From the IMG/VR virus record IMGVR_UViG_2529292997_000024: 35,482 nucleotides of DNA; one strand, given 5' to 3'. Below, piece by piece: positions 1,447 to 35,482 of the stretch. The position numbers and the translations under genes were made by a program. Every line of letters starts with the position of its first letter. Position 1 is the first letter of the stretch. A model generated the notes under the pieces. It was given only the letters and a program-made list of their open reading frames with translations, searched no databases and was not told the DNA's origin. This stretch comes from a virus. Lineage: Duplodnaviria > Heunggongvirae > Uroviricota > Caudoviricetes > Peduoviridae.

Positions 1447-1533
1447 GCTGAAAAACATAACCCATAAAATGCTAGCTGTACCAGGAACCACCTCCTTAGC
1501 CTGTGTAATCTCCCTTACACGGGCTTATTTTTT
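1447..1533 (+). ncRNA. cyaR: CyaR (RyeE) Hfq-dependent small RNA
   Basis: Sequence gctgaaaaacataacccataaaatgctagctgtaccaggaaccacctccttagcctgtgtaatctcccttacacgggcttatttttt matches the CyaR sequence as I recall it, ending in a hairpin plus U-tract terminator. Confidence 0.8.
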
Positions 1534-1534
1534 A
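1507..1534. repeat. Left copy of the 28-bp prophage attachment core (aatctcccttacacgggcttatttttta), overlapping the cyaR terminator
   Basis: Exact 28-bp direct repeat with 33667-33694; ogr-proximal end of the prophage. Confidence 0.85.
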
Positions 1535-8513: not shown

Positions 8514-9152
8514 TTAACCACAGATGATATTGAAACGTTCTCCGGAAATCTTGACCATAATGTCAGACAGTTCGCTGACGGCATGGGCTTCAGATGATCC
8601 CGGAGCGTCAGGCTGAACAGCTATTACCGAAGCTCCACTTGCCAGCCCTGCTTTTATACCCGCAGATGCATCCTCAAATACCACGCATTCACCAGGCTCA
8701 AGGCCCAAAGCCAAAGCTGCTTTGATGTAACCCTCGGGACTTGGTTTTCCCGTCATTACATCTTCTGCACACACCATTACTATGGGTAAGGGGAGATTAG
8801 CCGCTTTCATCCTGTTTTCGGCAAGCATTCTGCCTGCCGAAGTGACAAGTGCCCAGCTATCCGGTGGCAGTTTTGATAAGAGTGCAGCGGCCCCTTTTAC
8901 TTCAGTAACGCCTTCTGTCGTGTTGATTTCAACCTCTTCGAGTGAGGCCGCGATTTTATTGGTTTTCTCACCTGCACCAATAAAATGCGTCAGTGTATCA
9001 ATCGTTTGCCGCCCGTGTGCGTAAGCAATCACAGCCTGAGTATCAAGACCGTATTCTGCACAAAAATCTCTCCAGACGCTTTCCACTACGGCTGTTGAAT
9101 CAACCAGCGTACCGTCCATATCGAATAAAAAACCCTTAGCGTTGAATATCAT
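8514..9152 (-). CDS. HAD-superfamily (class IA) phosphatase/hydrolase, cargo gene in the Z/fun slot
   Basis: N-terminal HAD motif I FLFDMDGTLVDS, plus a KPSPEG and a C-terminal FEDASAGIKAG motif. Start set at the second ATG (9152), which has an AAGGA Shine-Dalgarno with 6-nt spacing; the ORF track starts at 9158. Confidence 0.7.
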   Translation of the reverse strand: MIFNAKGFLFDMDGTLVDSTAVVESVWRDFCAEYGLDTQAVIAYAHGRQTIDTLTHFIGAGEKTNKIAASLEEVEINTTEGVTEVKGAAALLSKLPPDSWALVTSAGRMLAENRMKAANLPLPIVMVCAEDVMTGKPSPEGYIKAALALGLEPGECVVFEDASAGIKAGLASGASVIAVQPDAPGSSEAHAVSELSDIMVKISGERFNIICG

Positions 9153-9181
9153 TGCCATTCCTTAATGGTTGCAGAAGAAAG

Positions 9182-9820
9182 TTAATCAAACCATGTTTTT
9201 TCATCACCTTTCGCTACTCTCAGGCTGACAGCAATCTGCTCAGGCACAATTCTTGAAAGCGACAATTCAGGCAGGTCGTTGACATCAAAAAAATCAGCAT
9301 CGAGTGACTCATGGCTGATTGACAGGCTGCCACCTACTTCTTCACAGAGAAAAATCAGCTTGTAAACATGCCAGGGTAAAGGCGGATGGCCGTGAAGATT
9401 ACGATCCCAAACTCCCAATAGTTTAGTCACTCTGACTTTTAATCCGGTTTCTTCTTCGACCTCTCGACGCACAGCTTCAGAAGGTGTATCTCCAACATCT
9501 GCCCATCCGCCAGGAAGACTCCATAATCCATCTGCAGCCTCTTTCACCATCAGAATACGATTATTGCGCAGGATAAACGCACGCACATCTGTTTTGGGCG
9601 TCGCGTAACCCGTTTCCGATACATGAAACAAATCATTGCGGCTAATATCAAACTGCGAACTCAGCAGTCCAGCGGCAATTTCACGCAAGGCTTCATAGCG
9701 TTCCTTGTCAAAGACGTCTTTTGAATAGGTCAGGCCTGACTGCGCGAGGGCCTTTAGTCTCTGGGCAACAAAAATAAGCTTTTCTTGGGTCAACACTTCA
9801 GACATGTTTTTCATCTTCAT
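9182..9820 (-). CDS. Nudix hydrolase with an N-terminal extension, cargo gene in the Z/fun slot
   Basis: Nudix box GGWADVGDTPSEAVRREVEEETGL (Gx5Ex7REUxEExGU pattern); lies between G and FI, where P2 carries Z/fun. Confidence 0.7.
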   Translation of the reverse strand: MKMKNMSEVLTQEKLIFVAQRLKALAQSGLTYSKDVFDKERYEALREIAAGLLSSQFDISRNDLFHVSETGYATPKTDVRAFILRNNRILMVKEAADGLWSLPGGWADVGDTPSEAVRREVEEETGLKVRVTKLLGVWDRNLHGHPPLPWHVYKLIFLCEEVGGSLSISHESLDADFFDVNDLPELSLSRIVPEQIAVSLRVAKGDEKTWFD

Positions 9821-10499: not shown

Positions 10500-13259
10500 T
10501 TATACCTGCGCCACGTTATACCATGTCCCGTTAATGTATTTCTGAACCGGTCTGTAATATACACCACCAATGTTATCGGCAGAGTTTGAGCCGGTATCCT
10601 GAACAATAATGCCGGAATATACACACCCGGACGGTGCCTGATGTGTCCATGTCATGCCATTGTTCGCAGGTTTGTATGTGGCAGCACCACCAAGCCGGAT
10701 ATCCCGGACATAGCGGGAATCAAAGTTACCGTAATCCGAGGGATTAACACGCCCCGTAATATTTATGGTTTTATTACTTTGAATACTTCCCGAGACAAAG
10801 CGCATAATATGGACGCTATTAGCATAAACATCCAGATTACCATCACCATTTTGTTTAAAGCCCGTGTCATTATCACCCAAAACAATCGAATTACCGCCAA
10901 GAGCACTGGATGTTCCTATACCCAGAGCACCATTCAATTGACCACCAGATAACGGCAGTGCACCGACATCTCCCGCTGTAGGTTTTCGCGTTGTGGTATA
11001 AAACTCAGACCAGTCAGCCTCGAATCCGTAACCGTCACGAGCAGAACGATAAAAAATACCGCCGTTCTTATAATTAACGCGGAACTGGGCGGCGGGACAA
11101 CTTCCTTCACCGATATTAAAATGAAGAATTAACGTTGATGCCCCACCAGTAGTTGCGTTATAGGCTCCGCTACTCCAGTTCCACCCAACGGCTTTATCAT
11201 TCGCAACGGTGTCTCCTGTTTTTCCTGAAGCAAATGCACCAATATTTTTCGGCGTCAGGTTAATATCTGATGTTCCATCAAACGAAACGTTATTAATTTT
11301 ACGGGCTGTTTTCAGCTTTGTTGCTGTCGCCGCATTGCCGGACAGTTCACCAGAAAGGCCAGCACTGAATGTCTGTTTCGCGCCCCATGTCTGGGCTTCG
11401 TCAATGATTGGTACTCGTCTTGCTGTGATCGTGCGGCTTCCCGGATTTCCTGAAATACGCACCATAAAAAAGCGGTAGTTGGCCTTACTTACAGTGCTGC
11501 GCCATACATGCATCGAGCGTCCCGAACCAGAATCATCACTCGGACCGACTGAGATGTTTATCAGGTTGCCATCAATGACGCCCCAGTCCATACCGTCGGG
11601 AATGTTGGTCATATTATCAAGCCGAACGGTTATCAGACTACCCGGTACAAAGTCGTAGGTCTGCCAGTCCAGACTGGATAGTTTTGCCACTGCGCCACCG
11701 ATGCCCAGATTCAGGGGAAGTGAATAAGATGTGTAAACTTCCCGCCATTCGCTCCATGAGCTGCCGGTAAAAACACGCTCAAACGTGCGACCTTTAAGGG
11801 TTGTACCTGTTCCGGCAGTTGTATAACGCTGCCATACGTTAACACCATCAAAGCGCCTCAACACTTCCAGAATACCGAGGACTGTCACGCCGTTTCCGTC
11901 CAGTACTGGACCGTTGGTCGCTTTACCTGTAACGCTGTAAATACCTGGTGAAGTCACATCATTCAAATCCCCGTCGTAATAACGACTCTCTGACTGATGA
12001 CCGACTCTTAACCACGGTTCCCACTGCGGATTTGATGCATCCCAGCTTGCCGCAAGGCAGCGGACGTACATATTTCCACGGCGAGTGGTATAACGTTGCG
12101 TTCTTCCATAATTCCCGCCTTCGAGGATCTCAAGCGTCCCCTGAGCAAAGCCGCCTTCCTCTGGATAATTGCGTTCATATGAAGCTATAGCCGAGCTACT
12201 GTTACGCCATAAACCAAGATGTTCGGCGGCTCCAAGCGTATTCAGGTCTATAGTCGTACTCAAAGGGCGGGTAGCTGATTGAGTGTGACGCCATACGCCC
12301 CACGGACCATCAGTGCCATTCCACTTATTGGCGAGTTTACGCATGTATACATTGCCGTCTCTTGTGGTAAAGCGTTGCGTACCTGCAAAATTGCCGGCAG
12401 CAAAAACCTCAAGCACACCGACAGCATTATCTTCCGGGAAATTTTTCTCCAGTGTTGCGTTAGTTGAGGTAGCTTTAGACCAGATCCCCAGATAAGCCTT
12501 AACGGGACCAAATGTATTCAGGTCAGCATCAAGCGGCATTTCGCCATTGTTTTTCATAAACGTCAGGCTGGTAACGCCAACATTGTCCAGAAAAGCGCCC
12601 TTATCTGGAATATCGCCACCGTTCTGGTCTTTCTGCATACGTTTTTCAGCATTGTCATAGGCTGCTTTTACTGCCTTTGGCGTTGCTGCCAGCTTTTCAC
12701 TGGTGCTGTTTGTTGCACTGCTTAACTGAGTAAAACCTTTTTCTGTCAGCGTGGCGTCAGGATGGCGACGGGACTGCTCATGCTCTGCGATTTTGTCATC
12801 GACGTAATCCTGCGTCGCCATCACTGTGCTGGCATCAATACTCAGCTCAACGGATGCCACGTTACTGACAATAATGACCATGCGGCAGGTCTGCGCACGT
12901 CCGGAGCCTTCAGCCAGTTCAGGCTTATAGCTTTCTGCCATGTTGGCGACCGCAATCAGTGTTCCGGCATCGTCATACAGACCAAGTTCACGCATCCAGA
13001 AGCCGCCCACTTCTGGCGGTACCACCAGTTCAGCCACGATATAGTTTTTATTCTTATTATCCACGCTGACTTTATTCAGAGCGTGACGCCAGACCTCATG
13101 CACCAGTTTCGTCTGACCGGCATCCGGCACCGGCAATTTGCCATTACCGTCACCCACGGCCATTGCAGACAGGTTTACTTTTTTCCCGCCGGGGACAGTG
13201 GCGGCTGCCAGCTTTGCGGCTCCGGCAGTAGTGATAACGGTTTTAAATTTCGTGCTCAT
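10500..13259 (-). CDS. H: Tail fibre protein H (919 aa; extended, with three tandem ~90-aa repeats)
   Basis: Position between I and G; far longer than P2 gpH (669 aa as I recall); internal triplicated repeat at about aa 244-512. Confidence 0.85.
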   Translation of the reverse strand: MSTKFKTVITTAGAAKLAAATVPGGKKVNLSAMAVGDGNGKLPVPDAGQTKLVHEVWRHALNKVSVDNKNKNYIVAELVVPPEVGGFWMRELGLYDDAGTLIAVANMAESYKPELAEGSGRAQTCRMVIIVSNVASVELSIDASTVMATQDYVDDKIAEHEQSRRHPDATLTEKGFTQLSSATNSTSEKLAATPKAVKAAYDNAEKRMQKDQNGGDIPDKGAFLDNVGVTSLTFMKNNGEMPLDADLNTFGPVKAYLGIWSKATSTNATLEKNFPEDNAVGVLEVFAAGNFAGTQRFTTRDGNVYMRKLANKWNGTDGPWGVWRHTQSATRPLSTTIDLNTLGAAEHLGLWRNSSSAIASYERNYPEEGGFAQGTLEILEGGNYGRTQRYTTRRGNMYVRCLAASWDASNPQWEPWLRVGHQSESRYYDGDLNDVTSPGIYSVTGKATNGPVLDGNGVTVLGILEVLRRFDGVNVWQRYTTAGTGTTLKGRTFERVFTGSSWSEWREVYTSYSLPLNLGIGGAVAKLSSLDWQTYDFVPGSLITVRLDNMTNIPDGMDWGVIDGNLINISVGPSDDSGSGRSMHVWRSTVSKANYRFFMVRISGNPGSRTITARRVPIIDEAQTWGAKQTFSAGLSGELSGNAATATKLKTARKINNVSFDGTSDINLTPKNIGAFASGKTGDTVANDKAVGWNWSSGAYNATTGGASTLILHFNIGEGSCPAAQFRVNYKNGGIFYRSARDGYGFEADWSEFYTTTRKPTAGDVGALPLSGGQLNGALGIGTSSALGGNSIVLGDNDTGFKQNGDGNLDVYANSVHIMRFVSGSIQSNKTINITGRVNPSDYGNFDSRYVRDIRLGGAATYKPANNGMTWTHQAPSGCVYSGIIVQDTGSNSADNIGGVYYRPVQKYINGTWYNVAQV

Positions 13260-23898: not shown

Positions 23899-24932
23899 TG
23901 AGCAAGAAAAAAGGGAAAACACCGCAACCTGCAGCAAAAACAATGACCGCCAGCGCCCCGAAAATGGAGGCGTTCACCTTTGGTGAGCCGGTGCCGGTAC
24001 TCGACCGCCGTGACATTCTGGATTACGTCGAGTGCATCAGTAACGGCAGATGGTATGAGCCGCCAGTCAGCTTTACCGGTCTGGCAAAAAGCCTGCGTGC
24101 TGCCGTGCATCACAGCTCACCGATTTACGTCAAACGTAATATTCTGGCCTCGACATTTATCCCGCATCCGTGGCTTTCCCAGCAGGATTTCAGCCGCTTT
24201 GTGCTGGATTTTCTGGTGTTCGGTAATGCGTTTCTGGAAAAGCGTTACAGCACCACCGGTAAGGTCATCAGACTGGAAACCTCACCGGCAAAATATACCC
24301 GCCGTGGCGTGGAAGAGGATGTTTACTGGTGGGTGCCGTCCTTCCATGAGCCGACACCTTTCGCGCCCGGCTCCGTGTTTCACCTGCTGGAGCCGGATAT
24401 TAATCAGGAGCTGTACGGCCTGCCGGAATATCTCAGCGCCCTTAACTCTGCCTGGCTGAATGAGTCGGCCACGCTGTTCCGCCGCAAGTATTACGAAAAT
24501 GGCGCACATGCCGGATACATCATGTACGTCACCGATGCCGTGCAGGATCGCAACGATATCGAAATGCTTCGCGAAAACATGGTTAAGTCGAAAGGCCGCA
24601 ATAACTTTAAAAATCTGTTTCTCTATGCCCCGCAGGGGAAAGCCGACGGCATTAAAATTATCCCCCTCAGTGAAGTGGCGACGAAGGACGATTTTTTTAA
24701 TATCAAAAAAGCCAGCGCCGCTGACCTGCTGGACGCGCACCGCATCCCCTTTCAGTTGATGGGCGGCAAGCCGGAGAACGTCGGGTCGCTGGGTGATATT
24801 GAGAAAGTGGCAAAGGTCTTTGTCCGCAATGAGCTTATCCCGTTACAGGACAGGATTCGGGAAATAAACGGCTGGCTCGGTCAGGAGGTCATCCACTTTA
24901 AAAACTACTCACTGGACACTGACAACGGCTGA
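23898..24932 (+). CDS. Q: Portal protein Q (344 aa)
   Basis: Length and position match P2 gpQ, adjacent to cos. Confidence 0.9.
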   Translation: MSKKKGKTPQPAAKTMTASAPKMEAFTFGEPVPVLDRRDILDYVECISNGRWYEPPVSFTGLAKSLRAAVHHSSPIYVKRNILASTFIPHPWLSQQDFSRFVLDFLVFGNAFLEKRYSTTGKVIRLETSPAKYTRRGVEEDVYWWVPSFHEPTPFAPGSVFHLLEPDINQELYGLPEYLSALNSAWLNESATLFRRKYYENGAHAGYIMYVTDAVQDRNDIEMLRENMVKSKGRNNFKNLFLYAPQGKADGIKIIPLSEVATKDDFFNIKKASAADLLDAHRIPFQLMGGKPENVGSLGDIEKVAKVFVRNELIPLQDRIREINGWLGQEVIHFKNYSLDTDNG

Positions 24933-25101: not shown

Positions 25102-25120
25102 GTGCTTTCCCCGCCTCGCC
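25102..25120. other. cos: cos site: 19-nt cohesive-end sequence of P2-type phages
   Basis: gtgctttccccgcctcgcc is the reverse complement of GGCGAGGCGGGGAAAGCAC, the P2 cohesive end as I recall it; lies about 170 bp beyond the Q stop. Confidence 0.75.
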
Positions 25121-25258: not shown

Positions 25259-26308
25259 ATGTGCTACACTTTTATACAAACCTATGATAAAAGCGATAAA
25301 AAATCTTCCATTTTGGCGAACATTATGACGGATATTGAAACAGCTCGATGGAACACAGAAAGTGCCGCTTTGTTGGCACTATCAGAAATACATGGCGTTA
25401 GTTATTGGACTCTATATAAAGTTGCTCAAAAGGGAATCAGATTTAGAGACATTGTTACCAGCCAAACATTAGCCAACTTTGAGTATCTACTTGGAGTAAA
25501 ACTTCATCGCCAACCTTATTATTTGAATGAAGGCAATTGGTCTGTTTTTCGGGACAGCATGATTTCTACGGCTAAAATATTACTCACACATTATCATAAT
25601 AGTGGTTACAAAATCATCCACCATGGTTCTCCGAGCTATCCAGACAAGTTGAATGACCTGTCTGAGCCGCCTTTCTGGTTGTTTGCTCAAGGCAATGTAT
25701 CCTTGCTAGATAAAAAGTGTGTTGGAGTTGTCGGCACCAGAAACCCAACCGCACTTGGAATTTATTTAACTCAAGCAGTAATCTCGCAATTTATAGATTC
25801 GGATTATTCAACTGTAAGCGGTTTAGCATATGGTATAGATCAATCTGCACATGAAGCATCCCTGTTATTTAAAATACCGACAATTGCTGTGTTAGGTACT
25901 GGCGTAAACTCAAATTATCCCAAAAATAGTGGCGAGATGAGAGGCCATATTGTAAATAATGGCGGACTGATTCTTACTGAGTATTTACCAAACCAAAAAC
26001 CATCACAGGAAAACTTTGTTCGTAGAAATAGAATTCAAGCAGCTTTAAGTGATGTATTGATCCCAGTTGAATGGGGCCTAAAAAGTGGGACATCTCATAC
26101 TGTGAGATATGCTGCTCAATTAAAAAGAGCGATACTTTGTCCTTTACTTAGGGGAACTACACCTCAAGAAGAGATTAAACATGCCTTGTCAGAGTACTCA
26201 GCTACGATAATGAATATTCCACTATCCGATTTTAAAGACGTGCAAAGCTTAATTAAATCAGCATCCGGTGTAAAAACACAGCAACTTTCTCTTCTGGGAG
26301 ATGAATAA
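25259..26308 (+). CDS. DprA/Smf-like (DNA processing protein A fold) protein; ShosA-like candidate
   Basis: Rossmann-type DprA motifs CVGVVGTRNPTALG, SGLAYGIDQSAHEA, IAVLGTGVNSNYP, LILTEYLP and NFVRRNRIQAALSD; AT-rich; start could instead be the ATG at 25325. Confidence 0.7.
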   Translation: MCYTFIQTYDKSDKKSSILANIMTDIETARWNTESAALLALSEIHGVSYWTLYKVAQKGIRFRDIVTSQTLANFEYLLGVKLHRQPYYLNEGNWSVFRDSMISTAKILLTHYHNSGYKIIHHGSPSYPDKLNDLSEPPFWLFAQGNVSLLDKKCVGVVGTRNPTALGIYLTQAVISQFIDSDYSTVSGLAYGIDQSAHEASLLFKIPTIAVLGTGVNSNYPKNSGEMRGHIVNNGGLILTEYLPNQKPSQENFVRRNRIQAALSDVLIPVEWGLKSGTSHTVRYAAQLKRAILCPLLRGTTPQEEIKHALSEYSATIMNIPLSDFKDVQSLIKSASGVKTQQLSLLGDE

Positions 26309-26309
26309 T

Positions 26310-27584
26310 ATGTATTTAAAGGCAGTTATATTTTCAATCGCAGATGTTGTATTACCATTAACATCTAACACTCAACCTCAGGAACTAAAATCTAGAATCG
26401 ACTCTGAATTACGTAAGTTGTTTGCGTTTTTGTCATCAAAAGGGATTAAAGTTATCTTCTTGACAAATAAAAATAGAAACGTGAGAACACATGACGGGAT
26501 CGTAACACTAGACGAATACCTAAAAAGGAAATTCCCAGAATCAATTCACTTTTGCCGTGAACTCGACAACAACATACCAGCAAAACAAACAGGGAAGGCC
26601 ATAGATTTCATCATGGCTGCGTTAGAATTAAAACGAAACGAAATGATCTATGTAGGGCGTTCTCAGGAAGACTTACAAGCAGCTACCAACGGGAATACCC
26701 TATTTATTAATGCGACCTGGTATGAACCGGTTACTGAGTACGGTTTTCAATTTTCAGAACCCAAAGAAATCGCTAGATTTATTGATGTCTTTTGCTTAAG
26801 AGAGCAGTTGTGGGGATGGCAAGGGCATTTTAATGAAGATGTTCACTACTACGCCTTAGCACCATTTAGCACATATGTCCCTGAATTTACAATGTATTCA
26901 GCCAATGCAAGAGACCTCGCAAAGCTATCGGTTGGAAGCCCCGATTTTTGGATAAGATATCTTGGTGCTAGCATTTATTTCTCTGGCTTAAGTGAAGGAG
27001 CAAGTTTTATAACCACCTACGTTGGACATAACGCTGAAGATCCTTATAAACTAGCAAACATTATGGAGCATGACCTAAAAGGTTTAGCAGTCTCATTCAA
27101 AGGAAAGTATCTAAAAGATCTATTCTTACGACATACAACAGCTATTAAATCACAGCAAGCTCGGATAGCTAAGCAAGAAGTAAACATCACATCTCAAATA
27201 AACACCGTTAATTTAAATCCTGCCCCTATTAAAAACCTCATCACCGGCGAAAGATATACCAACCCTCCTAAATTGAAAGGTAAGAAAATATTAGTTATTG
27301 ATGATTTTTGCACTGAAGGAAATGCTCATGAAACAGCCAGAATGTATCTAAAAGCTGCAGGCGCAAATGTAATAAATATATCGTGGTTAAAAACCATCAA
27401 TCGTGACGTTTCTATCTGTGAACCAACTCGCAAGATACGGCCATGGGAGGCCAATACACTTGATGTTGATGACATTAACTATGTCGGTACGATTGGTTAT
27501 GCTGAAAATGTAACTCACGGTAGTGCACCTCAAGTGTTATCAGAAAAAATTCAACAATATGATAACTGGGACTGGCCACAATAA
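26310..27584 (+). CDS. PRTase-like (phosphoribosyltransferase-type PRPP-binding motif) protein with a large N-terminal region; ShosT-like candidate
   Basis: C-terminal KKILVIDDFCTEGNAHETA resembles the type I PRTase PRPP loop. Start set at the ATG at 26310, which has a GGGAG Shine-Dalgarno with 9-nt spacing (alternative ATG at 26301 overlaps the upstream gene by 8 nt). Confidence 0.7.
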   Translation: MYLKAVIFSIADVVLPLTSNTQPQELKSRIDSELRKLFAFLSSKGIKVIFLTNKNRNVRTHDGIVTLDEYLKRKFPESIHFCRELDNNIPAKQTGKAIDFIMAALELKRNEMIYVGRSQEDLQAATNGNTLFINATWYEPVTEYGFQFSEPKEIARFIDVFCLREQLWGWQGHFNEDVHYYALAPFSTYVPEFTMYSANARDLAKLSVGSPDFWIRYLGASIYFSGLSEGASFITTYVGHNAEDPYKLANIMEHDLKGLAVSFKGKYLKDLFLRHTTAIKSQQARIAKQEVNITSQINTVNLNPAPIKNLITGERYTNPPKLKGKKILVIDDFCTEGNAHETARMYLKAAGANVINISWLKTINRDVSICEPTRKIRPWEANTLDVDDINYVGTIGYAENVTHGSAPQVLSEKIQQYDNWDWPQ

Positions 27585-31597: not shown

Positions 31598-31782
31598 ACC
31601 CTCCGGCTTTTCAGAAAGGTCAGAGCCTTTTTTAACGGACTCTGTTTTTTGGTGCGGATAATGATTCCCTTACGCCCCTTACCGTGGGTGATGGTGAAGT
31701 CAATCGCCCTGGGGCTTTCGTTACGCAGTAACTGAGCAATACAACGAGGCTCATTCATACGGTTCTCCTTAACGTGGTTCAC
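31588..31782 (-). CDS. Small basic protein (orf78 position, 64 aa)
   Basis: ORF between cox and B, overlapping both. Confidence 0.5.
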   Translation of the reverse strand: MNHVKENRMNEPRCIAQLLRNESPRAIDFTITHGKGRKGIIIRTKKQSPLKKALTFLKSRRVWK

Positions 31783-32044
31783 CGAGACCTAACCACATCA
31801 ACCAGCCGTCACGAATCTCTTTAGGTCGGCTTTCATAAGCCAGTTTTAGTCCGTTATTCCATGCCGGAAGGTATACCCAATATTCACCTGCACGACCTGA
31901 AGCTGATTGTGGATCGGTCATATCAATTACAGGCAGCTTTCCTTTATCGATCATCCGACGAACCGCTCCTGTCGATTTTCCTATTAGTTTTGCGAACTCC
32001 TGATAAGGAATCGCATCAGTCATGAGTGTTACTTGCTTGCTCAT
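31769..32044 (-). CDS. cox: Cox, excisionase and early-promoter regulator (91 aa)
   Basis: MSKQVTLMTDAIPYQEFAKLIG...; 91 aa; divergent from C, as in P2. Confidence 0.85.
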   Translation of the reverse strand: MSKQVTLMTDAIPYQEFAKLIGKSTGAVRRMIDKGKLPVIDMTDPQSASGRAGEYWVYLPAWNNGLKLAYESRPKEIRDGWLMWLGLGEPR

Positions 32045-32158: not shown

Positions 32159-32458
32159 ATGTCAAACACGATAAGCGAGAAGATAGTCTTAATGCGAAAA
32201 TCAGAGTATTTGAGCAGACAACAACTTGCTGATTTAACAGGGGTTCCGTATGGCACGCTGAGTTACTATGAAAGTGGTCGTTCAACACCTCCAACAGATG
32301 TCATGATGAACATCCTGCAGACCCCACAATTCACCAAATACACTTTATGGTTCATGACCAATCAGATCGCTCCTGAGTCCGGGCAAATTGCGCCCGCTCT
32401 CGCACACTTTGGGCAAAACGAAACAACGTCGCCCCACTCCGGTCAAAAGACTGGTTAA
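32159..32458 (+). CDS. C: Immunity repressor C (99 aa)
   Basis: MSNTISEKIVLMRKSEYLSRQQLADLTGVPYGTLSYYESGRS..., helix-turn-helix; 99 aa as for P2 C. Confidence 0.88.
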   Translation: MSNTISEKIVLMRKSEYLSRQQLADLTGVPYGTLSYYESGRSTPPTDVMMNILQTPQFTKYTLWFMTNQIAPESGQIAPALAHFGQNETTSPHSGQKTG

Positions 32459-32573: not shown

Positions 32574-33587
32574 ATGGCAATCAAAAAACTCGATGATGGT
32601 CGATATGAAGTGGACATCCGCCCTACTGGACGTAATGGAAAACGCATCCGTAGGAAGTTTGATAAGAAAAGCGAAGCTGTCGCTTTCGAGAAATACACGT
32701 TGTACAACCACCACAATAAAGAATGGCTATCAAAACCAACAGACAAGCGACGTCTGTCGGAGCTGACACAGATCTGGTGGGATTTAAAGGGTAAACACGA
32801 AGAGCATGGGAAATCTAATCTTGGAAAAATTGAAATCTTCACAAAAATAACGAATGACCCATGCGCATTTCAAATTACGAAATCGCTTATCAGCCAGTAC
32901 TGCGCCACCCGAAGAAGTCAGGGTATTAAACCTTCGAGTATCAATCGTGATTTAACATGTATTAGCGGCATGTTTACAGCCCTGATTGAAGCGGAGTTAT
33001 TCTTTGGTGAGCACCCTATCAGAGGGACAAAAAGGCTTAAGGAGGAAAAACCAGACACAGGCTATCTCACGCAGGAAGAAATTGCCTTACTGCTTGCTGC
33101 TCTTGACGGCGACAACAAAAAGATTGCGATTCTTTGCCTGAGTACTGGAGCACGTTGGGGAGAAGCAGCTCGTTTGAAAGCAGAAAATATCATCCATAAC
33201 CGCGTCACGTTTGTTAAAACGAAAACAAACAAACCACGCACCGTCCCGATCTCAGAGGCTGTTGCCAAAATGATCGCGGATAACAAACGAGGTTTTTTAT
33301 TCCCTGATGCTGATTACCCTCGCTTCAGACGAACAATGAAAGCAATAAAACCGGATTTGCCAATGGGGCAAGCCACACATGCACTAAGGCACAGCTTTGC
33401 CACTCATTTCATGATTAATGGAGGAAGTATTATCACGCTACAACGGATACTAGGTCACACGCGGATTGAGCAAACTATGGTTTACGCTCATTTTGCGCCA
33501 GAGTACCTTCAGGACGCCATTTCTCTTAATCCGCTAAGAGGTGGTACTGAGGCCGAGAGTGTCCACACAGTGTCCACAGTAGAGTAA
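32574..33587 (+). CDS. int: Tyrosine integrase (337 aa)
   Basis: MAIKKLDDGRYEVDIRPTG... with C-terminal catalytic R...HxxR...Y region; GGAGGG ribosome-binding site 7 nt upstream; adjacent to the att core. Confidence 0.9.
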   Translation: MAIKKLDDGRYEVDIRPTGRNGKRIRRKFDKKSEAVAFEKYTLYNHHNKEWLSKPTDKRRLSELTQIWWDLKGKHEEHGKSNLGKIEIFTKITNDPCAFQITKSLISQYCATRRSQGIKPSSINRDLTCISGMFTALIEAELFFGEHPIRGTKRLKEEKPDTGYLTQEEIALLLAALDGDNKKIAILCLSTGARWGEAARLKAENIIHNRVTFVKTKTNKPRTVPISEAVAKMIADNKRGFLFPDADYPRFRRTMKAIKPDLPMGQATHALRHSFATHFMINGGSIITLQRILGHTRIEQTMVYAHFAPEYLQDAISLNPLRGGTEAESVHTVSTVE

Positions 33588-33666
33588 CGTTTAAGGGCTT
33601 TCAGTGGTAATTTATGCCGCTCAAACCCGCATTGTACCGTTGAAAGCCCCTACTGGTGACACCCTA

Positions 33667-33694
33667 AATCTCCCTTACACGGGCTTATTTTTTA
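33667..33694. repeat. Right copy of the 28-bp prophage attachment core
   Basis: Exact 28-bp direct repeat of 1507-1534, 79 bp downstream of the int stop. Confidence 0.85.
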
Positions 33695-33850
33695 TGCATA
33701 AGCCGTATCCTGGTCACCGTCTTCCATTGACCACATCGATAGAATCCCCCTTCATAACACGATGCCTTTCACGTAACGGCATCGTGCTCGTACAGATTCC
33801 GGCTACGCACAACCAGAACGCGCATGTTTGACGCTTACCAAAAAATATTC

Positions 33851-34168
33851 TCACTCTCCACATTTGAATGTCAGACGAGCGACGCCATGTAATCCTGCAC
33901 CTTCTGTCTTCAGGTCAACTATCTGCATTTTTTTGCCCTGAGTAACACAGAAATGAGCTGCATCATTTTTTACTATATTTTCTGCACCAGAAATTCTGCC
34001 CCTGGCTAAAGAAGCTTCGGCTTCGGTGTAGTATTGGTTATCGAGTTTACGCTGAATATTACTTTTATATGCAAGACCAAATTTACCGATACTTGTCTCA
34101 TCATTATGTACAGCACACCCAGACATAAGAAAAACACTAATTAATGATATAGCAGCTATCTTTTTCAT
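33851..34168 (-). CDS. yegR: YegR, small putative lipoprotein (105 aa)
   Basis: MKKIAAISLISVFLMSGCAV signal peptide with lipobox; host gene between the prophage and yegS. Confidence 0.7.
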   Translation of the reverse strand: MKKIAAISLISVFLMSGCAVHNDETSIGKFGLAYKSNIQRKLDNQYYTEAEASLARGRISGAENIVKNDAAHFCVTQGKKMQIVDLKTEGAGLHGVARLTFKCGE

Positions 34169-34582
34169 CTTACCTTCCCCCATTAAATACCAACGACACG
34201 CTCTGGTGTTAAAATATAATAATGGCATGATTATTATAATTGAATAGGATTATAATAAATGTTCTGTACAACATTTCCTACATAAGTAGGAATTACATAC
34301 ACGGAGGCCCTTCCGGGTAACCCCATGGGGGGGTTAATATATTTTTAATAGTATATTGAAGATGCCACTGTTTAGTTGAATATTAGGTATATGCTCTTTT
34401 TTGAAATTTACCTATGGCTACCGTTAACATTCACTGTCCCCATTGCAAGCTCCTGGTGGTAACCACTGAATCCTCTATACTTGAACTGATTTTTTATCCT
34501 CCGACTTTCATCCTGTTCTGACTCCACCTTTTCTTTTCTGCTCTACACTATCTACAGACCAATCATAAAGGCACATACGATC

Positions 34583-35482
34583 ATGGCAGAATTTCCCGCC
34601 AGCTTACTGATTCTTAATGGCAAAAGTACTGACAATTTACCATTGCGCGAAGCAATTATGCTGTTGCGTGAGGAAGGAATGACGATCCATGTGCGGGTCA
34701 CCTGGGAGAAAGGCGATGCCGCACGATATGTAGAGGAGGCCCGGAAGTTGGGCGTCGCAACGGTGATTGCCGGTGGTGGCGATGGCACCATTAATGAAGT
34801 TTCTACGGCGTTGATTCAGTGTGAGGGGGATGACATACCCGCGCTAGGAATTTTGCCATTAGGAACCGCCAATGATTTTGCCACCAGTGTAAGGATTCCT
34901 GAGGCACTGGATAAGGCGCTGAAACTGGCAATTGCCGGTGACGCCATTGCGATAGATATGGCGCAGGTCAACAAACAAACCTGTTTTATTAATATGGCGA
35001 CAGGCGGATTTGGGACGCGTATTACCACAGAAACGCCGGAAAAATTAAAAGCCGCGCTGGGTGGCGTCTCTTACATCATTCATGGCTTAATGCGCATGGA
35101 TACTCTGCAACCGGACCGTTGTGAGATCCGCGGTGAAAACTTTCACTGGCAAGGTGACGCCCTGGTCATTGGTATTGGTAACGGGCGTCAGGCCGGTGGC
35201 GGTCAGCAATTGTGCCCGAACGCGTTAATTAACGATGGCTTGCTGCAACTGCGCATTTTTACCGGCGATGAAATTCTTCCGGCTCTCGTATCAACATTAA
35301 AATCTGACGAAGATAACCCGAATATTATCGAAGGCGCTTCGTCGTGGTTTGATATACAAGCCCCACACGAAATCACTTTTAATCTTGATGGCGAACCGTT
35401 GAGCGGACAAAACTTTCATATTGAAATACTTCCGGCGGCGTTGCGTTGTCGATTACCACCAGATTGCCCATTGTTGCGTTAA
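34583..35482 (+). CDS. yegS: YegS lipid kinase (diacylglycerol-kinase-like fold), complete 299 aa
   Basis: [32 protein letters not shown]... with GGDGT motif; host gene ending at the window edge. Confidence 0.88.

Follow-up and report, generated by a model that had tools for sequence, protein, structure and literature searches.

Results

cyaR is intact between yegQ and a prophage

The window, by which we mean the whole stretch of 35,482 nucleotides analysed here, opens with host DNA. yegQ (trhP), a 453-aa ORF on the + strand (1-1362) that is so annotated in the matching RefSeq genomes, lies upstream of cyaR, as it does in unoccupied genomes and in K-12. The sRNA gene cyaR (ryeE) itself occupies 1447-1533 on the + strand, as judged from Rfam, from comparison with the unoccupied site and K-12, and from its fold. 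We found that the Rfam family CyaR_RyeE (RF00112) matches 1445-1530 on the + strand over the full length of the model (positions 1-85 of 85), scoring 100.7 bits where the gathering score is 47 (E = 3.4e-19). The naming of this gene as cyaR in an earlier note on the same DNA is thus upheld; the coordinates used there, 1447-1534, are those of the gene plus one base. The same note held that the gene stays intact after integration, and indeed every base from 1437 to 1533 is the same as in the unoccupied genome and in K-12.

The promoter region of cyaR (1397-1439, + strand), read directly from the sequence, is all host DNA. It contains a CRP-like site, TTAGA-N6-TCACA, at 1397-1412, centred at about -42.5 and with the half-site TCACA at 1408-1412, as well as a putative -10 element, TATCAT, at 1434-1439. 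This region is the putative cAMP-CRP-dependent promoter of cyaR, whose product is known as an Hfq-binding RNA of about 87 nt. The predicted fold of CyaR comprises a small internal hairpin and an 11-pair terminator stem: the intrinsic terminator hairpin lies at 1498-1525 (+ strand, 6-nt loop UCUCCC), and the stem is followed by UAUUUUUU, with the U-tract at 1526-1533. At the other end of the window are two further host genes, yegR (33851-34168, - strand; coordinates transferred via the composite query described below) and yegS (34583-35482, + strand; from the ORF list and RefSeq annotation).

An exact repeat brackets the element but carries only part of the terminator

A 28-mer, AATCTCCCTTACACGGGCTTATTTTTTA, is present in the window in two exact copies, at 1507-1534 and 33667-33694, both on the + strand, just as the earlier note had described the duplication. 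Such a repeat is not expected by chance: there were no matches in 100 shuffles, even with 3 mismatches tolerated. On the left the repeat ends where position 1506 (t) differs from 33666 (a), and on the right where 1535 (c) differs from 33695 (t), beyond which it can be followed as a looser repeat of 35 nt with 2 mismatches. The element bracketed by the two copies, with one core counted, is 32,160 bp long.

The two copies differ in what surrounds them. The cyaR-side core (1507-1534) forms the junction adjoining ogr and shares 27 of its 28 nt with the annotated attP core of P2. It consists of the last 2 nt of the 5' stem arm of the terminator together with the loop, the 3' arm and the U-tract; the remainder of the 5' arm, positions 1498-1506 (9 of 11 nt), lies outside the duplication. 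The core had been described as the terminator hairpin and U-tract of cyaR, and this description stands for the loop, 3' arm and U-tract but not for most of the 5' arm. The int-side core (33667-33694) is a partial copy of the cyaR 3' end, without a hairpin, and because it follows the stop codon of int, it has no promoter of its own. A terminator search found no terminator at 33667-33694, and the fold of this segment was no better than that of shuffled sequences (z = -0.04), since the 5' stem arm lies mostly outside the repeat. We therefore rejected the idea that the second core is a duplicated, functional cyaR 3' end.

The repeat is the recombination core

The outer flanks of the repeat (900-1534 and 33695-34400), joined into a 1341-nt composite, give the predicted attB. 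This composite is present as a single uninterrupted piece in E. coli CFSAN061770 (NZ_CP023142), with 1341 of 1341 nucleotides identical, and the annotation at the match reads yegQ - yegR - yegS; the alignment against a prophage-free yegQ-yegR junction that had been proposed earlier thus yields an exact match. The predicted attP, obtained by joining the inner flanks, is identical to phage 10W (OM475433) over 361 of 361 nt. Moreover, in the P2 record AF063097 the annotated attP core (24356-24382) consists of the same 27 nt, and only the core is common to the four sites that we compared. Because attB and attP are both rebuilt exactly from the flanks, these data place recombination within the repeat, in agreement with the earlier reading of the repeat as the recombination core.

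Sequence alone cannot show the position of strand exchange, and one might argue that the repeat is instead the target-site duplication of a transposition event, or a chance repeat, with the true junctions elsewhere. A chance repeat is at odds with the shuffled controls, joining the flanks restores, base for base, a natural empty site and a natural attP whose sole shared segment is the repeat, the element encodes a tyrosine integrase rather than a transposase, and the same 27 nt serve as the annotated attP core of P2. We regard the probability of this explanation as negligible; its transposition form was rejected on the type of integrase and on the exact reconstruction of attB and attP. We conclude, with a probability of about 0.97 and with no finding here to the contrary, that a P2-type temperate phage integrated here by means of Int, its attP core recombining with the identical stretch of 27-28 bases that closes cyaR at the 3' end. 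The attachment site is the classical preferred site of P2, presumably the one named 'locI'.

Both phage arms carry the sites expected of a P2-type attP. In the arm on the ogr side (1532-1596; transferred from the protein_bind features of AF063097 by an alignment without indel), a putative IHF site lies at about 1532-1565, and Int arm-type sites, ATGTGGTCA and TGTGGACG on the - strand, lie at about 1569-1596. The arm on the int side (33553-33650; coordinates likewise transferred from AF063097 features) contains two copies of the Int arm-type repeat GTGTCCACA at about 33553-33579 and a putative Cox-binding region at about 33577-33650. The published consensus of the Int arm sites is tgTGGaCa (PMC3448106), and the arm repeats of the window fit it on both sides of the core. 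P2 has the same layout of Int arm, IHF and Cox sites, the same 27-nt attP core and the same cos 19-mer (AF063097 / NC_001895).

By analogy with P2, Int would bind the core and the arm-type repeats, IHF would be bound between core and arm, and Int would then recombine attP with the identical host sequence; excision would require Int, IHF and Cox. Strand exchange inside a stretch that is the same in phage and host would leave a complete cyaR at the cyaR-side junction, with the promoter, the body and the 5' stem arm coming from the host and the loop, 3' arm and U-tract lying within the core, and would leave only a promoter-less 3' fragment of the gene at the int-side junction. Since the phage brings its own copy of the cyaR 3' end, integration regenerates the gene. 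As the core is identical in phage and host, the exact point of exchange inside it is hidden, and the number of phage-derived terminator bases in the lysogen may accordingly be anywhere from 0 to 27.

The element is a P2-type prophage that matches deposited phage genomes

The prophage body (1535-33666), delimited by matches to phages 10W and P24C9 and by alignment of P2 proteins, has the gene order ogr D U T E FII FI [HAD, NUDIX] G H I J W V S R, followed by lysCBA K Y X L M N O / P Q cos [ShosA ShosT] and then by A orf83-80 B orf78 cox / C int. Over its whole length it is a 100.0% nucleotide match to Escherichia phage 10W (OM475433), whose source field reads 'E. coli lysogens', and to Peduovirus P24C9 (LR595883 / NC_049388); a single base differs from 10W, near cos and the start of the 10W record. 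The two phage genomes are opened near cos, whereas the window holds the integrated form. Compared with phage P2 itself, identity is 96-98% along most of the element.

We surveyed the gene content by tblastn of all 42 annotated P2 proteins against the window. The genes Q, P, O, N, M, L, X, Y, K, lysA, lysB, lysC, R, S, V, W, J, I, G, FI, FII, E, T, U, D, ogr, int, C, cox, B and A are intact and colinear with those of P2, and across the structural and replication genes the proteins are mostly 91-100% identical. The essential P2 proteins all align at full length except the tail fibre protein H and the last 7 residues of A, and gene A is nevertheless a complete ORF in the prophage. Ogr, C, Cox and Orf78 are 100% identical to their P2 counterparts and Int is 99.7% identical: these include the late-gene activator gene ogr (1635-1853, - strand), cox (31769-32044, - strand), which encodes the excision directionality factor and repressor of Pc, the gene for the 99-aa immunity repressor C (32159-32458, + strand) and the tyrosine integrase gene int (32574-33587, + strand). 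The terminator of ogr and the F operon lies at 1601-1624 on the - strand and also has a weak terminator score on the + strand. The exact 19-nt cohesive-end sequence of P2, GGCGAGGCGGGGAAAGCAC, is found at cos (25102-25120, - strand). The same tblastn survey found the non-essential P2 genes orf30, fun(Z), orf91, tin and old to be absent; unlike P2, the prophage carries ShosA/ShosT and a HAD + NUDIX pair.

Judged by these features, the element is a complete P2-type Peduovirus prophage: with the essential P2 genes, the cos 19-mer, both att arms and both cores intact, it bears out the earlier impression of completeness. One may still ask whether it is a dead (cryptic) prophage, like the remnant in K-12, that can no longer excise or make particles. 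Remnants are common at the cyaR site: K-12 has one, and the ogr-side junction occurs in 1129 genomes against 812 for the int-side junction, which leaves about 317 with the former but not the latter. With the exception of the diverged fibre H and the final 7 residues of A, however, the essential proteins align at full length, free of frameshifts and stops, while cos, both att arms and both copies of the core are undamaged; in addition, two deposited phage genomes, one with the source 'E. coli lysogens', match at 100.0%. We therefore consider it highly improbable that the prophage is dead.

The element carries ShosTA, a HAD and NUDIX pair and a diverged tail fibre

Four cargo genes interrupt the P2 order. 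ShosA (25259-26308, + strand), which is DprA-like and 349 aa long, and ShosT (26301-27584, + strand), 427 aa, lie in the cos-proximal hotspot between cos and A, where P2 has old and tin. Both match full-length PADLOC profiles (E = 2.2e-231 for ShosA and 4e-296 for ShosT); in Pfam the pair gives DNA_processg_A and a weak Pribosyltran match that falls below the cut-off. These matches identify the adjacent DprA-like and phosphoribosyltransferase-like genes as a ShosTA pair, a toxin-antitoxin and putative defence system. A DprA and phosphoribosyltransferase pair in the same P2 hotspot has been described earlier (PMC9122126).

The second pair replaces fun(Z), between G and FI. Pfam and profile searches suggest a HAD-family sugar-phosphatase-like protein of 214 aa (8514-9158, - strand) and a NUDIX hydrolase of 212 aa with a Nudix_N domain (9182-9820, - strand). 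A search of a defence library returned no confident match to a defence system for this pair, the only candidate being a weak one, PDC-S07 (E = 6.6e-10).

The tail fibre gene H (10500-13259, - strand; ORF list and tblastn) encodes 919 aa, compared with 669 aa in P2. Its first 204 residues are P2-like (86%), and its C-terminal part differs, with 39% identity; the assembly protein G is 74% identical to P2 G. The divergence of H and G suggests that the receptor specificity of this phage may differ from that of P2.

The prophage is very probably viable but is probably not induced by mitomycin C

Since genomes that match it at 100.0% have been deposited as phages, the prophage is very probably viable. 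The immunity is of the P2 type, with a short C that lacks a peptidase domain and with Cox, not of the 186 type (CI, Apl, Tum). Each gene-sized ORF slot is filled by a P2 homologue or by one of the four cargo genes, and there is thus no space for a gene encoding a 186-type Tum antirepressor. By analogy with P2, the prophage would not be SOS-inducible. P2 is not induced by mitomycin C (PMC2669165), and because the C protein here is 100% identical to P2 C, a mitomycin C test would probably be negative even for a good prophage. Thus, the earlier suggestion that the prophage is 'probably inducible' fares well as regards viability, given the phage-deposited matches, but not as regards SOS or mitomycin C induction, given the identity of C to P2 C; mitomycin C is probably unsuitable as an induction test for this prophage. 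The antirepressor of the satellite P4 inactivates C.

Termination of CyaR in the phage context

The earlier note raised the question of whether the phage-derived flank changes the efficiency of the cyaR terminator. According to this idea, the phage sequence after the U-tract would measurably alter the termination, read-through or level of CyaR relative to the native flank. The phage and native flanks do diverge from 1535 on, and the CyaR terminator is leaky: in an hfq mutant, a double-terminator assay on a plasmid gave 41% read-through (PMC9765468). Transcripts that pass the terminator in the lysogen would, moreover, run antisense to ogr, beyond a hairpin with a poor T-tail. On the other hand, the hairpin, the U-tract and one further base are the same in both contexts, so the mature RNA is the same, and when transcripts extended by 42 nt are folded in silico, the terminator hairpin persists with either flank. 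For this reason we rejected competition between the phage flank and the terminator fold. In addition, a phage-type flank is already present in K-12, which we take to be the strain of the CyaR studies and a producer of functional CyaR; an effect of the phage flank would therefore be less new than it looks. Overall, we think it unlikely that the flank alters CyaR termination measurably.

In the predicted folds of the read-through transcripts, a downstream element, CUGGUCAC (1567-1574 in the phage arm and 33710-33717 in the native flank), pairs with GUACCAGG within CyaR (1478-1486). As CUGGUCAC is present in the phage arm and in the native flank alike, this predicted pairing is probably incidental.

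A more far-reaching idea is that cyaR read-through driven by cAMP-CRP and running antisense to ogr could tune late genes, or the response to the P4 satellite, according to nutritional state. It is based on the geometry of the locus, on the 41% read-through of the artificial assay (PMC9765468) and on the weak + strand terminator between cyaR and ogr, and we hold it to be a very long shot. If it were true, the phage would gain from the cyaR site something beyond a safe landing pad.

Occupation of the cyaR site in other genomes

We determined how often the site is occupied in 5426 complete E. coli genomes. The empty-site composite, or the composite with a small remnant, was found in one place in 4564 of them, the int-side junction in 812 (15%) and the ogr-side junction in 1129. 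The ogr-side junction therefore exceeds the int-side junction by about 317 genomes, an excess that mostly represents remnants like that of K-12.

In K-12, the same site holds a cryptic remnant downstream of cyaR that consists of ogrK and a fragment of gene D ('yegZ'), as the earlier note had stated. The cyaR-side junction of K-12 is nearly identical to that of the window over 130 nt; K-12 has lost everything from inside D to inside the second core, whereas the window keeps the whole phage. In the BW25113 locus (L002, about positions 1740-1765), the last 19 bases of the second core, TACACGGGCTTATTTTTTT, remain and are joined to the D fragment, which indicates that the K-12 prophage was killed by a deletion extending from D into the middle of the int-side core.

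When one genome per species was scanned, the exact 27-mer turned up in Escherichia and Shigella, in many species of Kluyvera and in two records bearing the label Enterobacter hormaechei. Of 16 loci from other species and genera with the exact core, 15 have it as the 3' end of a CyaR gene; in the remaining one, in E. ruysiae, it marks the far end of a P2-like prophage. In E. coli ECDA1023 (L006) and Kluyvera intermedia (L024), a second, diverged P2-like arm (gcctgtaataaactgaaataaaagaatttatttctctcaatgtccac...) lies directly against cyaR; the site therefore also serves another Peduovirus lineage, in Kluyvera as well. The two loci labelled Enterobacter hormaechei (L005, L016) have a CyaR score equal to that of E. 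coli and the exact core, and beyond the core their sequence is unlike both the E. coli flank and a P2 arm; it could represent another element at the site or a mislabelled record.

The native flank of the empty site resembles a phage arm

The host flank of attB at 33695-33753 resembles, in local alignment, the ogr-side phage arm (compare 1535-1610). The alignment scores 33, compared with 15.0 +/- 2.3 for shuffled sequences, and none of 2000 shuffles reaches this score. One Int arm-type site, ATGTGGTCA, survives in this flank. The homologous, longer flank of Escherichia sp. MOD1-EC7003 (L025) also retains the portion with the IHF site and scores 48 against 14.2 +/- 2.4. As controls, we examined the native flanks of E. 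ruysiae and Kluyvera (L018 and L009), and found no similarity to the phage arm.

The simplest reading of these data, and a probable one, is that a much older P2-like prophage once occupied the 'empty' site of E. coli and Shigella and left it as a scar. So read, the locus would most simply comprise three layers of occupation: the old scar, the K-12-type remnant and the intact phage. A search of a phage collection identified no donor lineage for the host flank at 33695-33860. The good matches to this segment were confined to two records, with an additional marginal match of 49 nt to phage 186 (E = 0.01), and the two records presumably include host flank DNA. We did not find this reading of the empty site stated in the searchable literature, though it may have been noted already.

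Discussion

A P2 prophage at cyaR is an already known, common and described arrangement. The genome paper on E. coli W names 'cyaR RNA' as the insertion site of the P2-like prophages Wphi2 of E. coli W and P2*B of E. coli B, and of ogr-D' of K-12 (PMC3032704), and a survey of prophage integration, with reference to work from 2001, lists ryeE in E. coli as 'previously known to be targeted by phages' (PMC3603311). As a discovery, the present case is of low value: the site is the standard one of a model phage and is occupied in about 1 in 7 complete E. coli genomes.

The gene-regenerating logic is likewise shared by many integrases directed at the 3' ends of tRNA, tmRNA and sRNA genes, in islands as well as in temperate phages. 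At its tRNA-Ile gene, phage 186 uses a core that is the 3' part of a structured RNA including a hairpin, and the same logic applies to Fels-2 and SopE-phi at ssrA and to Salmonella phages at ryeB/sdsR (PMC3448106, PMC3603311, PMC3333887). The site studied here differs from these in that the target is the terminator of an Hfq-dependent sRNA, not a tRNA-like fold, and in that the core is short (27-28 nt) and lacks the 5' stem arm.

What is gained lies in the annotation. The borders of the prophage are fixed to the base, cyaR is seen to be intact in the lysogen, and the phage is identified as a known isolate that carries ShosTA. Finally, the sequence downstream of cyaR varies from strain to strain, being a native flank, a K-12-type remnant or a full prophage, and this variation could matter for studies of read-through from the CyaR terminator.
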